A stretch of DNA of 17,558 bases from an uncultured Deinococcales bacterium (GTDB taxonomy: Bacteria > Deinococcota > Deinococci > Deinococcales > JAAFIG01), in NCBI GenBank assembly GCA_964247135.1, contig CAXTTL010000091.1, forward strand, positions 1 through 17,558, written 5' to 3'. Below, one piece after another: positions 11,407 to 17,195 of the stretch. The position numbers and the translations under genes were made by a program. Each line of letters begins with the position of its first letter. The stretch's first letter is position 1. A model generated the notes under the pieces. It did no database searches. It was not told where the DNA came from and was given only the letters and a program-made list of their open reading frames with translations.

Positions 11407-11907
11407 ATGATTTTCCCACTCGAGCAATGGATTCGTGTTTCACAAGAAATGAACTTGCGCTTTGAGAAACTTCGAGGGATTGCCGTGTGCGAAGCCAATC
11501 CCACGCCATTTCACCAAATGGAAATTGATCGGATTCGGGCGAGTGTTCGCGTTACCAATCCTAACGTTTCTGGTATTCATGTGGCGAATGTTTTGTTCGC
11601 TTTTGAGGATGATACGTTCGTCCAACCCGATATTGCTTTTTTAGCCGAGTTACCAATTCTTCTCGAGACTTATGAAGCTTTAAGCGTCGTTCCATCCGCC
11701 GTGATTGAAGTAACATCACTGGGTTTCGAGCGCAAAGACCTCGAGTTCAAACCACGGTTTTATCTTGAAAAAGGCGTAAAGGACATTCTGATTTTTGATC
11801 CGCGCACGAAAGTCATTTTGTATCACCGGCAAGAATGGACTGAACCCAAACAATTCTCGAGTCCAGCAAGATTCGAGTTGGAATGCGGTTGCGAAGTCAC
11901 AATTTGA
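11407..11907 (+). CDS. Uma2-family (DUF820) PD-(D/E)xK endonuclease-like protein
   Basis: P.P.HQ, QPDIAF, PSAVIEVTS...KD...K..FY...GVKDILIFDP. Confidence 0.85.
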   Translation: MIFPLEQWIRVSQEMNLRFEKLRGIAVCEANPTPFHQMEIDRIRASVRVTNPNVSGIHVANVLFAFEDDTFVQPDIAFLAELPILLETYEALSVVPSAVIEVTSLGFERKDLEFKPRFYLEKGVKDILIFDPRTKVILYHRQEWTEPKQFSSPARFELECGCEVTI

Positions 11908-11969: not shown

Positions 11970-14900
11970 ATGTCCGACTCGAGCAACCCGTTACGACCTG
12001 GGGACGCCAACCCCGCCGACCTCCACCACAACCTCGAGGCTTCACTCAAAACCCCGAAACGCTTCGCACACTTGCATCAGCACACACAATATTCGCTTCT
12101 GGACGGTGCAGCGCGAATCAAGGATTTATTGAAATGGGTTTTGAAAACCTCCCCAGAAAACCCGACCGTCGCCATGACCGATCACGGCAACATGCACGGT
12201 GCGGTGCAATTTTTCAAGTATGCCAACGAGTACGGCGTCAAACCGATCATCGGTTATGAGGCGTATGTTTCGGCAGGCTCGAGGTTTGACCGCAAAATGG
12301 AAAAGGGTGTCGATGGTGGGTATTACCATCTGACGCTGCTGGCAAAGAATTTTGAGGGCTATCAGAACCTCTGCAAGTTATCCTCCATCGCGTATCTCGA
12401 GGGTTATTATTACAAGCCCCGCATCGACCGTGAGGTGCTGGCGCTCCATCACAAAGGCGTGATCGCCATGAGCGGTTGCCTGGGTGCGGAAGTCCCAAAT
12501 TTGATCTTGCAAGATCGGCTCGAGGAAGCCGAAGAGCGTTTAAAGTGGTATCAAGCGCTTTTTAAAGAAGATTATTTCGTCGAGATTCAAAACCACGGTT
12601 TGCCAGAGCAGCAAAAAGTCAACCCCGTTTTGAAAGCTTGGGCGATCAAGCACGGCATCGGCATGGTTGCCACCAACGACGGGCATTACGTCAAACACGA
12701 AGACGCTTATGCCCACGAGGTTTTGCTCGCCATTCAGACCAAAGCGCTGATGAGCGAAGAAAAACGCTTTAAATTTTCCTGCGATGATTTTTACGTCAAA
12801 ACCCAACTCGAGATGGAAAAAATGCTGCCCAGTTCTGACTGGGGCGATGAGATTTACGACAACAGCATCAACATTGCCGACCAATGCAACCTCGAGCTTC
12901 CGATTGGCAACAAGCGCGTTTACCAAATGCCAGCGCTTCCAATTCCCGAAGGTCGTTCGATGGCGGAAGAGTTGCGGGTGCAAGTCTTTGAGGGTTCTCA
13001 AAAACGTTACCCCAAAGATTTGACCGATGCCTTGTACCGCCGTTATGTGCAAGTCAGCCTCGAGAAACTTGATATTGAGCGCCAAACTGCCCTGTTAAAG
13101 CGTATTCCAAACCTGAACCCCGAAACCGCGAGCCTCGAAACGCTGATTCTGGCGATGGCGTTTATGGGAACACTCTGGGTTGAACAATTTAAAGACGAAA
13201 AATACACGCAATACCCAGGGCTGGACTGGCTCGAGGAATTTGAGCCTGATGCTTGGGGGCAAGGTTTGGTGGTCTTGCGCCGCGCCGAGTACGAATCGGG
13301 CGTGATTATTCGCATGGGTTTCCCAGATTACTTTTTGATCGTCGCGGACTTTATCAACTGGGCGAAAGACCAGAACATTCGCGTCGGACCTGGGCGCGGT
13401 TCGGGTGCGGGTTCGCTGGTGGCGTATGCGCTGCGGATCACCAACTTGGACCCGCTGTTTTACGGTTTGCTGTTCGAGCGTTTTTTAAACCCCGACCGCG
13501 TTTCGATGCCCGATTTTGACGTGGATTTTTCGGACGCGCGGCGCAACGAAGTGATCGAGTACGTGCGCAACAAATACGGTGACGACAAGGTTGCCATGAT
13601 CGCCACCTTCGGAACGATGGCATCTCGCGCTGTGTTTAAAGACGTGGCTCGAGTTCTGGAATTGCCCTTTGCCGAAGCGGACAAACTCTCCAAACTCGTG
13701 CCCGTCAAATTCGGTAAAAGCCTTTCGCTCGAGGATGCCGCCAAAACCGTGCCTGACATTGCCGCGATGCTCGAGGAGAACGAAAAAACCAAAGAGGTTT
13801 TTGGCATTGCGCAGTCTTTGGAGGGTTTGACCCGTCACGCCAGCGTTCACGCCTCGGGGGTCATCATTGGACGCGAACGCCTGGACAACCTTGTGCCCTT
13901 AATGCGCGACTCGAGCGGCGAGGGTGTGGTCTGTCAACTCGACATGAGCAGCGTCGAAGATATTGGTCTGATCAAAATGGATTTTCTTGGACTTCGCACA
14001 TTGTCGTTTCTCGAGGAAGCCATGCGTATCGTCAAAGAATCCAAAGGCGTTTCGCTCGAGCCTGATGATTTCCCGCTCGACGATTCCAAAACCTACGATC
14101 TGATCTCGAGGGGTGAGACCAAGGGCGTGTTTCAACTCGAGGGTGGCGGGATTACCGAGGCGGCAAAACGCCTGAAACCCAGACGGATTCAGGATGTTAA
14201 CGCGCTCTCGGCGTTGTATCGCCCGGGTCCGATGGACAACATTCCGGCGTACATCGAACGGCATCACGGGCGCGAAGAGGTGCGTTACGACCAGGGCGAG
14301 TTTGATCTTCCGACTTGCGAACCGTTTTTGAAGCCGATTCTCGAGGAAACATACGGTATTCCCGTCTATCAAGAGCAAATCATGCAGATTGCGAGTGCGG
14401 TTGCGGGGTATTCACTGGGTCAATCTGACCTCTTGAGACGCGCAATGGGAAAAAAGAAGTTAGAGGAAATGAATAAAGAGCGTATTAAATTTGAAGAAGG
14501 CGCTCTTAGTGTTAATAAAATTCCTAAAAAAGAGTCAAATCGCTTGTTTGATATCCTAGAAAAATTTGCCAATTACGGATTTAATAAATCTCATTCTGCT
14601 GCATACGCCTTTATTTCATTCCAAACCGCTTATATCAAAGCCCATTATCCTGTTGAATTTATGGCGGCGCTGCTGACCGTCGAACGAAAAGACAGCGATA
14701 AAGTTGCAGAATATATTAACGATGCCAGACAACTCAAACTCGAGTCTGGCAACAAAATGCAGGTCTTGCCACCAGACATTAACCTTTGCTCGAGCGACTT
14801 TAAGGTGGTTGGCGAAAAGATTTTGTTCGGACTTTTTGCCGTTAAAGGCTTGGGCGAGGAATCGGTGCTGGCGATTCTCGAGGAACGTCAGAAAAACGGT

Positions 14901-15914
14901 GCGTTTAAGGGCTTGGCAAATTTTTGCTCGAGGTTGCAGCATGTTGGTTTGACCCGTCGTTGGGTGGAAAACCTGGTCAAAGCTGGCGCGTTTGATGCCT
15001 TCGGCGTTCGGCAATCCTTGCTCGAGTCGGTCGAAGATGCGCTCGATTACGCGGTGGGTCAGGCGCAAATGGCAAATCAGGGCATGGATGCGCTGTTTGG
15101 CATGGCGACCATTGCGCCAGAACCCAAGTTGCGGGTGATTCCGCCGGCTCAAACCGAAGATGAGTCTCGAGCGCGAGCGATTCAACAATTGCAATTCGAG
15201 AAAGAAGCAGTGGGTTTGTACATTTCTGGGCATCCGCTCGAGCATTACCCTGGAATGCTCGAGGCTGCCAGCACCAAAGCCCCAAACCTCGAGTATTGGT
15301 TTCACAATTCGGGTACGATTGCGGGCTACCGTGGGCGCAAGAAGGCGGTGCTGGCAGGCATGATTTCGGGCGTGCAACGCAAACCCACCAAATCGGGCGG
15401 CATGATGGCACGAGTCAATCTGACCGACAATGTGGGTTCTCTCGAGCTTGTGGCGTTCTCTCGGGCTTACGAGAAAATAAATACCAAACTCGTGGAAGAC
15501 ATGCCTGCGCTGGTGATCGTCGAGGTTGAACCAGACGGCGAGGGTATTCGGGTCAGCATCGAAGATGTCTTGACTTTCGATGAGGCTCGAGCCATGCCGA
15601 AAATCTTGTCGCTCGAACTGGATTTGGAAGAAGTTGGGGATGGTCAACTCGAGCATTTGGATGAAATTTTGCAAAATCAAGAAGGTGTTCCGAACACGCC
15701 AATTCGCGTTCGGGTTCGTTCTGAAGCAGGTTATGAGGTCTGGGAACTCGAGGTCAAAGCCACGCCCAGCACCCCAGAAACCCTGAAACTCGAGTGTCCG
15801 TGGTTACAACCCAAACTGGGCATCAACGGCGATGCAGTGCTGGCAAAGTACGAACGTGCGCCCAAGCCTTGGGAGAAAAAAGCGCAGGGTGGCGAAGCTC
15901 GAGTCTTGAATTGA
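11970..15914 (+). CDS. dnaE: DNA polymerase III alpha subunit (DnaE1 type, intein-free)
   Basis: PHP motifs HLHQHTQYSLLDG, TDHG, TNDGH; GPGRGSGAGS; SMPDFDVDF; KMDFLGL; YGFNKSH; C-terminal OB fold. Confidence 0.98.
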   Translation: MSDSSNPLRPGDANPADLHHNLEASLKTPKRFAHLHQHTQYSLLDGAARIKDLLKWVLKTSPENPTVAMTDHGNMHGAVQFFKYANEYGVKPIIGYEAYVSAGSRFDRKMEKGVDGGYYHLTLLAKNFEGYQNLCKLSSIAYLEGYYYKPRIDREVLALHHKGVIAMSGCLGAEVPNLILQDRLEEAEERLKWYQALFKEDYFVEIQNHGLPEQQKVNPVLKAWAIKHGIGMVATNDGHYVKHEDAYAHEVLLAIQTKALMSEEKRFKFSCDDFYVKTQLEMEKMLPSSDWGDEIYDNSINIADQCNLELPIGNKRVYQMPALPIPEGRSMAEELRVQVFEGSQKRYPKDLTDALYRRYVQVSLEKLDIERQTALLKRIPNLNPETASLETLILAMAFMGTLWVEQFKDEKYTQYPGLDWLEEFEPDAWGQGLVVLRRAEYESGVIIRMGFPDYFLIVADFINWAKDQNIRVGPGRGSGAGSLVAYALRITNLDPLFYGLLFERFLNPDRVSMPDFDVDFSDARRNEVIEYVRNKYGDDKVAMIATFGTMASRAVFKDVARVLELPFAEADKLSKLVPVKFGKSLSLEDAAKTVPDIAAMLEENEKTKEVFGIAQSLEGLTRHASVHASGVIIGRERLDNLVPLMRDSSGEGVVCQLDMSSVEDIGLIKMDFLGLRTLSFLEEAMRIVKESKGVSLEPDDFPLDDSKTYDLISRGETKGVFQLEGGGITEAAKRLKPRRIQDVNALSALYRPGPMDNIPAYIERHHGREEVRYDQGEFDLPTCEPFLKPILEETYGIPVYQEQIMQIASAVAGYSLGQSDLLRRAMGKKKLEEMNKERIKFEEGALSVNKIPKKESNRLFDILEKFANYGFNKSHSAAYAFISFQTAYIKAHYPVEFMAALLTVERKDSDKVAEYINDARQLKLESGNKMQVLPPDINLCSSDFKVVGEKILFGLFAVKGLGEESVLAILEERQKNGAFKGLANFCSRLQHVGLTRRWVENLVKAGAFDAFGVRQSLLESVEDALDYAVGQAQMANQGMDALFGMATIAPEPKLRVIPPAQTEDESRARAIQQLQFEKEAVGLYISGHPLEHYPGMLEAASTKAPNLEYWFHNSGTIAGYRGRKKAVLAGMISGVQRKPTKSGGMMARVNLTDNVGSLELVAFSRAYEKINTKLVEDMPALVIVEVEPDGEGIRVSIEDVLTFDEARAMPKILSLELDLEEVGDGQLEHLDEILQNQEGVPNTPIRVRVRSEAGYEVWELEVKATPSTPETLKLECPWLQPKLGINGDAVLAKYERAPKPWEKKAQGGEARVLN

Positions 15915-16028: not shown

Positions 16029-17030
16029 TTATTGATACACCGCAATCGAAAACGCAATCCTGCGCTTCGGGTGAATCAAAACCTTGCCCTTCCACGCCAT
16101 CCCGACGCTCGAACCACCATCGAGCGCGATGGCTTCTTTGGCGTTTAACGCTTTCATGATTTTGGAAAGTTGCCATAAATTGAGTTTCTCGCGGGTGCTG
16201 ACAAAAAAGAGTTTGCGTTCGCTCGAGATGCCCACCGCCGAACGTGAGGCGCGTCCCCAAACGGCGGCGTCTTTGAAACCTTCGCCTTTGGGAGCAACTT
16301 GCACCAGACCTCGGCGCAGAATGTAGGGTCCGCTCGAGATCAGGGTTTCAAATCCCGACCAGTCGAGCCTCGAGGCGCGGGAGAGTGATTCTGGTTTGAC
16401 CCAAAGGTAGGCGCGGTTGTCGGGCGTGATGCCGAGGGCGGTGCGGAGTTTCCCCCTGGCAACGTAACGTCCGTTGATGACCAGATCGCCGGCTGGGGCA
16501 AAGGTGGCGGTATTAAAGTATCCGCCGTTAATCATGGCGACGGCTTTGGAACCCGCAACCATCGCGTCAAAATTGGCGCCTTTATTGTGTTTGGGCAGGA
16601 TTGCTTTGACCTGAACGCTTGGGTTCTCGAGGTTGACGCGCACGATTTTAACGTGAAATCCAAACACGGTTTTTTCCTCAAAGGTGACACTGTTTTGAAT
16701 GCCCAGTTGAATTTGGCGCGGTTTGGCAACTTTGGGCTTAACCCGAATTTGTTTGAGCTTGGAAGGGTTGCTGATGGGTGTAAACGTTGGGGCTGCCTCG
16801 GGAATCGGCTCGGTGGGTGTGCCTGGGATCACTGGTTCGGGGGCTAAAGGTAGGCTCGGTGTGGCTGGTGCGGGTTGAATTGATGCGGGTTGAATTGATG
16901 CGGGTTGAATTGGCTCTGGTTGAATGGGTGCAACTGGCACATGGGGTGGCAAAACAGGGGCATCATTTTGGGGTTCCCCAAAACTCGAGCCACAAAATGA
17001 GATGAGTAGCACAACCAAAATTCGTTTCAA
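16029..17030 (-). CDS. Secreted phosphodiester glycosidase (NAGPA/DUF2233) family protein with Pro-rich linker
   Basis: Signal-like LKRILVVLLISF after RBS GGAGG (TTG at 17030); AMINGGYF, SSGPYIL, RSAVG, AIALDGGSS. Confidence 0.85.
   Translation of the reverse strand: MKRILVVLLISFCGSSFGEPQNDAPVLPPHVPVAPIQPEPIQPASIQPASIQPAPATPSLPLAPEPVIPGTPTEPIPEAAPTFTPISNPSKLKQIRVKPKVAKPRQIQLGIQNSVTFEEKTVFGFHVKIVRVNLENPSVQVKAILPKHNKGANFDAMVAGSKAVAMINGGYFNTATFAPAGDLVINGRYVARGKLRTALGITPDNRAYLWVKPESLSRASRLDWSGFETLISSGPYILRRGLVQVAPKGEGFKDAAVWGRASRSAVGISSERKLFFVSTREKLNLWQLSKIMKALNAKEAIALDGGSSVGMAWKGKVLIHPKRRIAFSIAVYQ
16869..16928. repeat. 15-bp coding tandem repeat (IQP[A/E][S/P] x4)
   Basis: TGCGGGTTGAATTGA twice exactly, plus two degenerate copies. 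Confidence 0.85.
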
Positions 17031-17195
17031 ATGCGATCCTCCAGGTGATGTTTGTATTGTACGGGTTTTGCAGGTTTTTAAACATCGCAATTGAACAGAG
17101 GCTGTGTTGCTCGAGGTTTTCGTCAATTTTTTCATTCTTTACTCAAACCTGGCTTTTCACGGCTTTTTGGTTTCATCGCTTGCACACCTCCAGAA

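Follow-up and report, generated by a model that had tools for sequence, protein, structure and literature searches.

The dnaE gene and its AT-rich tract

The stretch of DNA analysed here (the window; 17,558 nt) carries a dnaE gene encoding the alpha subunit of DNA polymerase III (Table 1). The product contains the Pfam domains of this subunit, its relatives bear the same name, and its closest relatives are the DnaE proteins of Deinococcota, with 98-87% identity within its own subclade. In the alignment of relatives, the protein is collinear with intein-free homologs and has no insert; the features that mark a dnaE with an intein (an insert in frame that starts with Cys/Ser, ends in His-Asn and is followed by a nucleophile at +1) are absent from the window. 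The relatives that we fetched are metagenome-assembled genomes (MAGs), and the window may be one too. In one related MAG, dnaE is split over two contigs.

Table 1. Position of dnaE, of its AT-rich tract and of the intein sites in the window (a slash marks an intein junction)
Feature	Position	Strand	Remarks
dnaE (DNA polymerase III alpha subunit)	11970..15914	+	ORF, 1314 aa, intein-free allele
AT-rich tract	14442..14660	+	codons 825-897; maximum-likelihood core 14472-14660
N-side arm of the tract	14472..14588	+	codons 835-873; most AT-rich part
C-side arm of the tract	14589..14660	+	codons 874-897
Empty intein homing site FNK/SH (K873/S874)	14586..14591	+	junction 14588/14589; Ser at +1
Second intein site LRR/A (R824/A825)	14439..14444	+	junction 14441/14442; uninvaded, Ala at +1
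Position homologous to the cyanobacterial split-DnaE junction (Y869/G870)	14574..14579	+	junction 14576/7; Gly at +1

A preliminary description of this DNA had reported 72 G+C among the 220 bases at 14441-14660, within a gene that is otherwise at about 50%. Our recount agrees (0.327, against 0.517 for the whole dnaE and 0.527 for the window). The G+C content at third codon positions (GC3) falls to a minimum of 0.23-0.30 across 14460-14669 in 40-codon windows, the gene mean being 0.594. Maximum-likelihood segmentation delimits a low-GC3 block at codons 835-897, with a GC3 of 0.22 over 63 codons versus 0.61 outside. The log-likelihood ratio of this segmentation is 19.0, while the permutation maximum was 10.5 (100 permutations), or 14.6 with a second routine (40 permutations). 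Across the 12 Pfam-supported genes of the window, the lowest 73-codon window is the one starting at 14442 (GC3 0.260); the remaining 4074 windows have a mean of 0.629, a standard deviation of 0.085 and a minimum of 0.301. Given the amino acids of the tract, host synonymous usage predicts a GC3 of 0.554 +/- 0.053, which places the observed value at z = -5.5, far outside intragenic variation. Further low-GC3 stretches occur elsewhere in the window, with 0.30 near 17099 and 0.37 in 11407-11907.

Beside the FNK/SH site, the 20-codon GC3 bins of the N-side arm are 0.15 and 0.30, and its third positions give T/(T+C) 0.78 and A/(A+G) 0.81 (elsewhere in dnaE, 0.41 and 0.39); its amino acids are also shifted towards AT-rich codon classes. 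On the C side, GC3 is 0.30 over the first 20 codons past the site and then rises to 0.55-0.60, with T/(T+C) 0.68 and A/(A+G) 1.0. The switch to A/T-ending codons that had been described is thus real (GC3 0.22-0.26 vs 0.61), but its supposed abruptness is not demonstrable: a block with sharp edges (lnL -842.4) describes the data about as well as does a smooth decay with its centre at the homing site (lnL -844.3 to -843.2). The 2-lnL support limits of the edges are 14394-14484 on the left and 14651-14747 on the right, and a Gaussian with free centre peaks at residue 861, 12 codons off the FNK/SH site.

The Leu-Glu pairs follow the same trend. Inside the tract they read, as had been noted, TTA-GAG and CTA-GAA, whereas 23 of the 28 pairs elsewhere in dnaE are CTC-GAG, and the hexamer CTCGAG is missing from 14345 to 14739. 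As a clock for the tract, CTCGAG turned out to be weak, with only 2 Leu-Glu opportunities, both unconverted; against 69/87 elsewhere this gives p ~0.04-0.05, and it is not different from the 5/8 of the intein described below.

Intein sites and intein movement among relatives

The low-GC3 block brackets the FNK/SH junction, as expected for the adjacency of a co-conversion tract. At exactly this junction, a 430-aa intein is present in L006, whose extein is 97% identical to the window protein, and in P0004 (96%); in L006 the 1290-bp element lies between the bases homologous to 14588 and 14589. Both inteins contain Intein_splicing and LAGLIDADG_3 domains, the latter a predicted endonuclease. The junction is filled in 16 more proteins of the alignment, and occupied alleles include P0019, P0021, P0027 and P0029 as well as many from Deinococcus, one from Trueperaceae and one from a Thermaceae genome. 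The inserts begin with Cys and end with HN, followed by Ser.

The second site, LRR/A, falls within the support interval of the left edge of the tract. Here P0018 contains a LAGLIDADG intein of 420 aa, the +1 residue being Ser, and P0123 an intein with Cys at +1, while the intein-free alleles listed have Ala at this position, in one case Val. Co-conversion is directly visible at LRR/A, invaded alleles having Ser/Cys and uninvaded ones Ala/Val. The Ala at residue 825 also weakens the proposal that the tract is an exon once flanked by two inteins, because invaded alleles have Ser/Cys there. At the third position the window reads ANY/GFNK, which aligns with the native junction of the Npu split DnaE intein, AEY/CFNK, as reported for that intein in PMC3759424.

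All three intein sites that the preliminary description had named are therefore real (FNK/SH in L006, P0004 and others; LRR/S in P0018 and P0123; AEY/CFNK in Npu, PMC3759424), and the coordinates that it gave for them in the window are right. It had further stated that the +1 residues at two of the sites could not support splicing. This is correct for Ala and Gly, while the Ser at the third site could splice.

Exteins that are nearly identical differ in whether they contain an intein, and the inteins spread horizontally. L006 nests with the intein-free window, P0002 and P0003 (clade support 97%), and P0008 (intein-free) and P0019 (intein-bearing) form a sister pair. The polymorphism is found in at least two sister clades. 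The intein-free allele of the window and the intein-bearing one of L006 differ by only 3% in protein and have the deviant flank in common. Furthermore, P0019 and P0021 are 98% identical in the extein and 79% in the intein, and L006 and P0122 share 65% identity in the intein and 56% in the extein. The L006 intein contains 8 CTCGAG sites versus 10.5 expected, and 5 of its 8 Leu-Glu pairs are CTC-GAG; since this signature is at near-host density, the intein did not enter the family recently from elsewhere.

The tract itself is present both with the intein (L006) and without it (window). In L006, its GC3 is 0.30 versus 0.58 elsewhere, and the best low-GC3 segment covers residues 832-885. The window and L006 differ at 24/219 positions in the tract, 20/230 upstream and 144/1254 downstream. 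Since the divergence of the tract (11%) equals that of its flanks, the tract is at least as old as the split between window and L006. Third positions give the same picture (21/73 in the tract; 18/77 and 116/418 in the flanks), and the GC/AT differences within the tract are symmetric, 11 vs 11; hence, no excess or biased mutation is visible since the split. A recent exchange between the two around the site was also rejected, as divergence is flat. At the protein level, P0002 has exactly the tract of the window and P0003-P0007 match it at 96-99% identity; these proteins stem from other sources. Its amino-acid type is common to 8/8 subclade alleles (seven proteins plus L006), with DNA for 2/8; in the wider family, the DNA-level comparison covers three members, namely the window, L006 with L002, and L001.

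In composition, the tract resembles the intein and not the host. The L006 intein has a GC3 of 0.363 (0.54 for the L006 extein), and its codon usage predicts 0.345 for the tract (z = -1.6), where 0.26 is observed. The lnL of the tract is -66.1 under L006 intein usage and -81.9 under host usage; the difference of +15.8 compares with a median of -18.8 for the other dnaE segments. The composition is nevertheless discontinuous at the L006 junction, where the flank bins are 0.25 and 0.15 and the first 40 intein codons 0.55.

In 74 dnaE loci, the GC3 of the homologous tract lies close to the value for the remainder of the gene; the exceptions are the kin of the window and some Deinococcus. An overlap of the best low-GC3 segment with residues 825-897 is seen at 6 of 9 Deinococcales loci, compared with 2 of 64 other loci (Fisher p = 1.3e-5; 5/8 and p = 7.8e-5 without L006), a grouping that was chosen after the data were seen. 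The high-GC Deinococcus alleles L009, L029 and L048 have their lowest-GC3 segments at residues 838-874, 854-892 and 821-866, respectively; at the amino-acid level, the L009 patch has the sequence found in further Deinococcus proteins (P0074, for example). Most dnaE genes show no dip, among them the Deinococcus loci L008, L011 and L012, and neither do L005 and L074, which carry an intein at the same site. In L048, the AT-rich patch lies near a host-like intein (GC3 0.87), with GC-ending codons between the two.

Origin of the tract

Considering that the tract is common to the window and an intein-bearing sister, that its codons are intein-like, that the dip is site-specific and that the inteins are polymorphic and mobile, there is good support for reading this anomaly, located at an intein hot-spot, as a scar of intein traffic. 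This is the core of what the preliminary description had proposed; its specifics fared less well. We favour, at a probability of roughly 45%, the explanation that the tract is a footprint left in the extein by a homing intein, co-converted in an ancestor from which the intein has since disappeared. A LAGLIDADG intein that inserts at FNK/SH would then circulate in this gene, with the window carrying an allele whose site is empty. In homing, the endonuclease would cut the empty site, and the break would be resected and repaired from the intein-bearing copy; because this copy templates the repair, flanking extein DNA would be rewritten along with the intein. An ancestor of the window's subclade may have received the intein in this way from an allele of the same Deinococcales family, whose homing zone would have had A/T-ending codons like the intein itself. 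The rewritten DNA would comprise ~117-150 bp upstream and ~70 bp downstream of the junction, and in the line leading to the window the intein would have been lost, the rewritten flanks being kept. We observe the anomaly and its location, the intein at the exact junction in relatives 96-97% identical, and the tract in the intein-bearing sister. That co-conversion rather than change in situ made the tract AT-rich, and that the window's line once carried an intein and lost it precisely, are steps that we infer from these observations.

Several findings count against the footprint explanation. The tract runs unbroken across the empty site, which speaks against loss by recombination with an intein-free allele that has no tract, since such an event should overwrite the junction codons. 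Nor is a route for precise deletion evident, as no microhomology in register was found at the intein ends. We also counted against it the lack of a donor, the normal rate, the host-like CTCGAG in the L006 intein, the discontinuity at the L006 junction, the separation of patch and intein in L048, L005 and L074 having no dip, a patch similarity in Deinococcus unrelated to the intein, and a family represented by three members at the DNA level.

The search for a donor deserves some detail. The suggestion of a low-GC donor received no support: a tract-only search of 5.8 billion proteins returned no protein in which the tract matches better than its flanks, and the tests on protein sequences speak against import from any of the lineages sampled. 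The tract ranks its relatives as the whole protein does (subclade 96-100%, family 78-86%, then ~73%). Between subclade and family, the N-side patch diverges at 1.43x the rest of the protein, and among family members at 1.46x; this relative rate being normal, the amino-acid sequence of the tract looks vertically inherited. Thus, the donor relationship that a co-conversion tract might show does not appear at the protein level, where the nearest relatives are the same and the rate is normal. At this level the tract groups with the relatives of its flanks. This is one half of what the preliminary description had held against its own reading; the other half was that no relative would have inteins at these junctions, and close relatives do carry them. 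Among plasmids, there was no near DNA match (29 records, all at 60-80% identity, with distant dnaE matches at 72-74%), and among phages none either (39 records, all below 60%, with distant inteins in phage helicases at ~24% identity).

We therefore rejected an out-of-family donor, for which neither the protein search nor the plasmid and phage DNA searches gave a closer source, as well as an in-family donor identified by relative rate, as the patch shows neither excess nor deficit of divergence. Import of the patch from the window's family into Deinococcus along with the intein was rejected too: how closely the patch of a Deinococcus protein resembles the window's family shows no relation to whether an intein is present (n = 21 vs 87, Mann-Whitney p = 0.59), and in the same comparison the score of FYMINK minus GARP residues differs only slightly (0.05 vs 0.00).

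The strongest rival, which we nonetheless consider unlikely, is that the tract became AT-rich in place through homing-linked decay. A polymorphic homing site might be cut repeatedly and resynthesised by error-prone, AT-biased repair, or the heterology of the intein might suppress whatever recombination or selection maintains the high GC3 of the host; synonymous sites would then drift to an AT-rich mutational equilibrium, while selection at the protein level holds the amino acids. In its narrower form, a drift over ~100 bp on either side of the site, due to recutting or to a 1.3-kb heterology shield, with a constant protein, we give it a little less credence still. The protein-level tests look vertical, yet the replacements are directionally of the AT type: FYMINK minus GARP in the patch reaches +0.31 to +0.33 within the subclade, compared with about +0.10 for the family, and outside the patch the two score equally. 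A site-centred decay describes the data about as well as a block does, the intein is also low in GC3 despite its host CTCGAG signature, and three high-GC Deinococcus have their lowest-GC3 segment at the same place. The recurrence in 6/9 Deinococcales, including intein-free high-GC Deinococcus, was counted for such an in-place scar, together with the vertical-looking protein and the AT-directed amino-acid shift. On the other hand, the tract shows no elevated third-position divergence between window and L006 and its GC/AT changes are symmetric, L005 and L074 have inteins and no dip, and there is no C-to-T vs G-to-A strand asymmetry across the cut site. Single-strand deamination during resection, which should favour C-to-T on one side of the cut and G-to-A on the opposite side, was accordingly rejected, both changes being enriched on either side. 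Moreover, the mutational mechanism is an assumption of ours, not established for bacteria.

Less probable again is an ordinary mosaic gene, in which a dnaE segment came from a lower-GC family member by homologous recombination and the intein site is coincidental. Many Deinococcales are naturally transformable, deviant composition is here combined with normal protein similarity, and the window has other low-GC3 stretches. However, this reading would leave unexplained the coincidence with the junction and its recurrence (6/9 Deinococcales vs 2/64 other dnaE), and the codon usage of the tract matches the intein. The phylogeny is not discordant at the protein level, and no family member is notably closer in the patch, the nearest, P0018, differing at 11 of 36 residues by alignment count.

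We regard as very unlikely that the tract is an endonuclease-immune allele, its synonymous recoding having been selected or swapped in because it hides the site from the homing endonuclease, so that an intein-free allele can persist beside intein-bearing ones. Such alleles do coexist at 97% identity, and the junction codons are suggestive: all four occupied loci read AAC AAR / TCS CAC and the window AAT AAA / TCT CAT, a difference from all four at three third-codon positions beside the site. Moreover, the +1 Ser is often AGY in intein-free Deinococcus. Across free loci it is encoded by 25 AGY and 35 TCN, and in occupied ones by TCN in 4/4, but with n = 4 this contrast is not significant. In addition, recognition sites of LAGLIDADG enzymes span tens of bases, compared with ~190-220 for the tract, and the intein-bearing L006 has the same AT-rich tract. 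These enzymes also tolerate substitutions in their target sites, according to the passages of PMC10643990 that concern them.

A nucleotide-level function that needs A/T-rich DNA (an RNA element, internal promoter, antisense gene or slow-translation patch) is highly improbable. A/T-ending codons are indeed the rarer class in this host (GC3 0.62), but the window has no match to an Rfam family, promoter-like sites number 2 vs 1.2 expected, no terminator-like sites were found, the antisense ORF at 14616-15680 has no Pfam match, and the dip is missing from most dnaE genes. Lastly, an assembly chimera with the dnaE of another organism, which the MAG origin of the relatives and a contig break ~210 nt upstream of the tract in one of them might suggest, is hardly credible: it would need two in-frame joins within one gene, the independently assembled L006 has a homologous tract diverged by 11% like its flanks, and the same tract protein recurs in P0002 (identical) and P0003-P0007 (96-99%).

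Comparison with known systems

In the portions of the publications returned by our literature search, a compositional footprint left by an intein in its extein is not described. The closest parallel to the footprint explanation is the homing group I intron of cox1 in angiosperm mitochondria, for which PMC3192709, in the text available, describes an exon co-conversion tract retained after putative intron loss. In both cases, flanking coding DNA would be rewritten together with the element during double-strand-break repair; in the rare cox1 case, the element is absent while the tract is fully retained, which is interpreted there as secondary loss. The cox1 tract is recognised by synonymous differences at diagnostic sites, the tract of the window by composition. 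Furthermore, the window concerns an intein in a bacterial chromosomal gene, with a tract of ~190-220 bp on both sides of the site, compared with 3-21 bp and some extended tracts in the cox1 account; and the donor origin of its tract is a proposal, the protein-level tests showing no discordance.

In haloarchaeal MCM-d, as far as the available text of PMC10643990 goes, invaded alleles always have a nucleophile at +1 and uninvaded ones a non-nucleophile; since the +1 state differs between them, invasion must co-convert the flank. The same +1 pattern is found at the LRR/A site, and in both systems several intein sites lie close together in a replication gene. MCM-d differs in that a single codon is concerned, homing was experimental in Haloferax, the hosts are archaea, and no compositional tract is described in those parts of the work. 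A cluster of intein sites in the catalytic domain of DnaE, Deinococcus-Thermus included, is reported in the consulted sections of PMC4760082. In those sections and in the corresponding ones of PMC3759424, the DnaE catalogues list inteins, whereas the window has none and presents only empty sites and their flanks.

Empty-site alleles that keep the flank signature of the element are rare, and they document those parts of the homing cycle that are least understood, namely the loss of an intein from an essential gene or the resistance of the gene to it. The two dnaE alleles offer a system to measure the length of co-conversion, the mutagenicity of repair at homing sites and the protection given by synonymous changes. 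If general, a compositional scar could reveal past occupancy by inteins or introns in genomes that now lack the element; if the in-place reading were true, intein hot-spots would carry a scar recording past homing even in empty alleles. In the homing-cycle model, as outlined in the available parts of PMC1654191 and PMC2814812, removal of the element must be precise and is therefore slow, and a compositional footprint in empty alleles is not among the predictions given there. The cycle of invasion, fixation, decay, loss and re-invasion does predict presence/absence polymorphism and incongruent intein and host trees, and in the dnaE genes studied here we see both, the polymorphism being found among close relatives.

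Extent of the AT-rich tract and its recurrence in Deinococcales

The preliminary description of this dnaE had claimed an AT-rich tract, and our counts bear this out. G+C accounts for 72/220 bases in 14441-14660, compared with 0.517 for dnaE overall and 0.527 for the window, and GC at third codon positions (GC3) falls to 0.23-0.30 against a gene mean of 0.594. Sliding along the 12 Pfam-supported genes of the window, we found the tract to be the minimum of all 73-codon windows, the remaining 4074 having a mean GC3 of 0.629 and a minimum of 0.301. Maximum-likelihood segmentation returned a block with GC3 of 0.22 versus 0.61 outside (log-likelihood ratio 19.0; permutation maximum 10.5, n=100). Amino-acid composition is ruled out as the cause, since residues and host synonymous usage predict a GC3 of 0.554 +/- 0.053 whereas 0.260 was observed. 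On the other hand, the edges are blurrier than the abrupt codon switch initially described: a gradual decay with its centre at the intein site fits the GC3 profile about as well as a block, and the limits lie within 14394-14484 (left) and 14651-14747 (right).

Features of the window and best low-GC3 segments of Deinococcales dnaE genes
Feature	Position	Strand	Evidence or remark
dnaE, DNA polymerase III alpha subunit, 1314 aa, intein-free	11970-15914	+	ORF, translation, Pfam domains
LRR| junction, followed by Ala in the window	14441/2	+	Occupied in P0018, P0123
FNK|SH junction, empty in the window	14588/9	+	430-aa insert at exact position in P0004, L006
Low-GC3 segment, window	residues 835-897 (14472-14660)	+	Significant
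Low-GC3 segment, L006	residues 832-885		Significant
Low-GC3 segment, L001	residues 866-888		
Low-GC3 segment, L009	residues 838-874		Significant; GC3 0.50 vs 0.85
Low-GC3 segment, L029	residues 854-892		Not significant; GC3 0.67 vs 0.90
Low-GC3 segment, L048	residues 821-866		Significant; GC3 0.49, LLR 24.3
L048 intein	L048:7563-8801		GC3 0.87
RtcB RNA ligase, 551 aa	5213-6868	-	N-terminal MJ1316 cyclic-end recognition domain; RtcB match in two stretches
Uma2-family gene directly upstream of dnaE	11407-11907	+	GC3 0.37
Antisense ORF within dnaE, 354 aa	14616-15680	-	No Pfam match; probably a by-product of dnaE codon composition
NAGPA-domain gene	16029-17135	-	N-terminal part, near 17099: GC3 0.30 over 73 codons

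Across 74 dnaE loci from many phyla, the homologous codons have a GC3 close to the value for the remainder of their gene. As a control, one best low-GC3 segment was taken per gene in 73 genes and its overlap with residues 825-897 scored; 8 overlapped, with about 6.5 expected by chance. The overlap occurs in 6/9 Deinococcales versus 2/64 others (Fisher p = 1.3e-5; without L006, 5/8 and p = 7.8e-5), p-values to be read with caution since the grouping was picked post hoc and the genes are related. Four of these six segments are individually significant. The dip is absent in two intein-bearing genomes, L005 and L074.

L009 and L029 are intein-free, high-GC Deinococcus dnaE genes; the lowest-GC3 segment of both lies at the FNK|SH site, with T-ending codons and AGT as the Ser codon right at the junction. 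In L048, a Deinococcus MAG (GC3 0.89), seven GC-ending codons separate the AT-rich patch from an intein of host-like GC3; an older footprint may have been partly replaced here when a later intein arrived with a short co-conversion tract.

Inteins at the dnaE junctions and their mobility

The three intein sites named initially (LRR|, the Y|G split junction and FNK|SH) are all correct, and relatives do carry inteins at LRR| and FNK|SH. The FNK|SH insert of P0004 (96% identical to the window protein) and L006 (97%, a Deinococcales MAG contig) begins with Cys, ends with His-Asn, is followed by Ser and contains Intein_splicing and LAGLIDADG_3 domains. The same site is filled in P0019, P0021, P0027, P0029, many Deinococcus, one Trueperaceae and one Thermaceae genome. 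At LRR|, P0018 has a distinct 420-aa LAGLIDADG intein followed by Ser. P0123, a 2032-aa DnaE of another phylum whose extein is 39% identical to that of the window, carries one intein at LRR|, followed by Cys, and a second at FNK|SH; the two come after residues 824 and 873 in the window's numbering and are separated by 49 extein residues. In the uninvaded alleles listed, the residue after LRR| is Ala throughout, except for one Val; carrying over the logic published for the haloarchaeal MCM-d intein site (PMC10643990), the window's Ala marks an uninvaded state there. The window's ANY|GFNK aligns with AEY|CFNK, the native Npu split DnaE junction (PMC3759424). Clustering of PolIII alpha intein sites, including in Deinococcus-Thermus, has been documented before (PMC4760082).

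In an extein tree built with the tract excluded, the window, P0002 and P0003, all intein-free, formed a clade with intein-bearing L006 (97% support), and P0004, which also has the intein, fell outside this clade but within a subclade of eight alleles that has 100% support. In the sister clade, an intein-free allele (P0008) and an intein carrier (P0019) were nearest neighbours. Intein and extein identities were discordant: 79% vs 98% for P0019-P0021, 85% vs 95% for P0019-P0027, 65% vs 56% for L006-P0122 and 91% vs 96% for L006-P0004. Therefore, the intein is polymorphic in near-identical hosts and horizontally mobile within Deinococcota, in line with the homing-cycle model (PMC2814812, PMC1654191). 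In the sister clade, intein-free alleles (P0008, P0009) are interleaved with intein-bearing ones (P0019, P0021, P0027), whose exteins are 95-98% but inteins 79-85% identical; both observations suggest repeated independent invasions or intein replacement.

A lineage signature was found in the palindrome CTCGAG (for example at 14340, 14739 and 14789), present 128 times in the window, about 1 per 137 bp, against 3.7 expected and a maximum of 12 in 200 shuffles. All three reading frames contain the motif (69, 12 and 25 sites), it is denser still outside the 12 genes (22 sites/2273 bp), and 69/89 Leu-Glu pairs are coded by it. L002 and L006, two contigs of one related MAG, match the window's density (7.4-7.5 per kb), with 4.2 in L001 and an all-loci median of 0.11; 14 of the 16 window sites in 14212-15914 are kept in L006 despite 11% divergence. 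CTCGAG has the appearance of a lineage-specific, highly iterated palindrome; no paper listed by full-text literature searches describes it in its title or the opening of its abstract. The L006 intein has 8 sites (10.5 expected) and 5/8 Leu-Glu pairs as CTC-GAG, indicating a long-term resident of a CTCGAG-rich family and no recent immigrant. Neither Leu-Glu pair of the tract has CTCGAG in the window or in L006, but two pairs are too few to weigh.

Origin of the tract

The L006 intein is surrounded by a homologous tract (GC3 0.30 vs 0.58 elsewhere). Window and L006 differ at 24/219 bases in the tract, 20/230 upstream and 144/1254 downstream, and third positions are likewise equal; the tract thus dates back at least to their split, without exchange since. 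The L006 intein has a GC3 of 0.363 (extein about 0.54), and the tract is coded much more like the intein than like the host (lnL -66.1 vs -81.9), whereas other dnaE segments favour host usage by a median of 18.8. About 210 nt before the tract, at a point homologous to window 14212-14233, the dnaE of the related MAG is broken between two contigs: the end of L002 and the start of L006 share about 20 bases, one of them mismatched, and the contig with the intein is just 3257 bp. Coexistence in that assembly of strains with and without the intein would be expected to give this pattern.

A search with the tract protein alone gave the relatives that the whole protein gives, identically ranked, and no outsider. 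Upstream of FNK|SH, patch divergence relative to the rest of the protein is 1.43 between the subclade (window and 7 closest alleles) and the wider family, vs 1.46 among family members. Only the direction of amino-acid change is unusual: the subclade patch is enriched in AT-rich-codon residues (+0.31 to +0.33 vs about +0.10), the rest of the protein being equal. Together with the intein's CTCGAG signature, the step in GC3 at the L006 junction (0.25 and 0.15 in the flanking bins, 0.55 over the first 40 codons of the intein) and the combination in L048 of an AT-rich patch with an intein of host-like GC3, the search and the divergence argue against a foreign low-GC donor. The proposed scar of intein traffic is partly supported: its link to homing has good support, a low-GC donor has none.

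Summed over all mechanisms, we consider a causal connection with intein homing to be well supported (roughly 0.65-0.7). The conventional mechanism, which we rate likeliest while holding it tentatively, at somewhat under even odds, is that the tract would have been copied by co-conversion from an allele of the same family that carried the intein, and then retained in an allele now empty. The tract runs unbroken through the empty site, a continuity that does not sit easily with intein loss via recombination with an allele lacking the tract. The main competitor, which we rate clearly lower, is in-situ change around a homing site that is cut again and again or shielded from recombination. It would better explain the vertical-looking protein and the dip recurring in high-GC Deinococcus; it draws no support from strand asymmetry or from any substitution excess or bias since the window-L006 split. 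Recombination import unrelated to inteins is more doubtful still, and an endonuclease-immune allele is improbable. A nucleotide-level function, for which RNA element, promoter and antisense-gene searches were negative, is very improbable, and mis-assembly hardly credible, the tract being also found in an independent assembly (L006).

Co-conversion remains our preferred mechanism, and the locus offers a natural system, of moderate interest, in which to study how inteins are gained and lost and how their flanks are rewritten. A retained cox1 co-conversion tract provides a direct precedent (PMC3192709), and the window tract is a new example of a kind of footprint already known.
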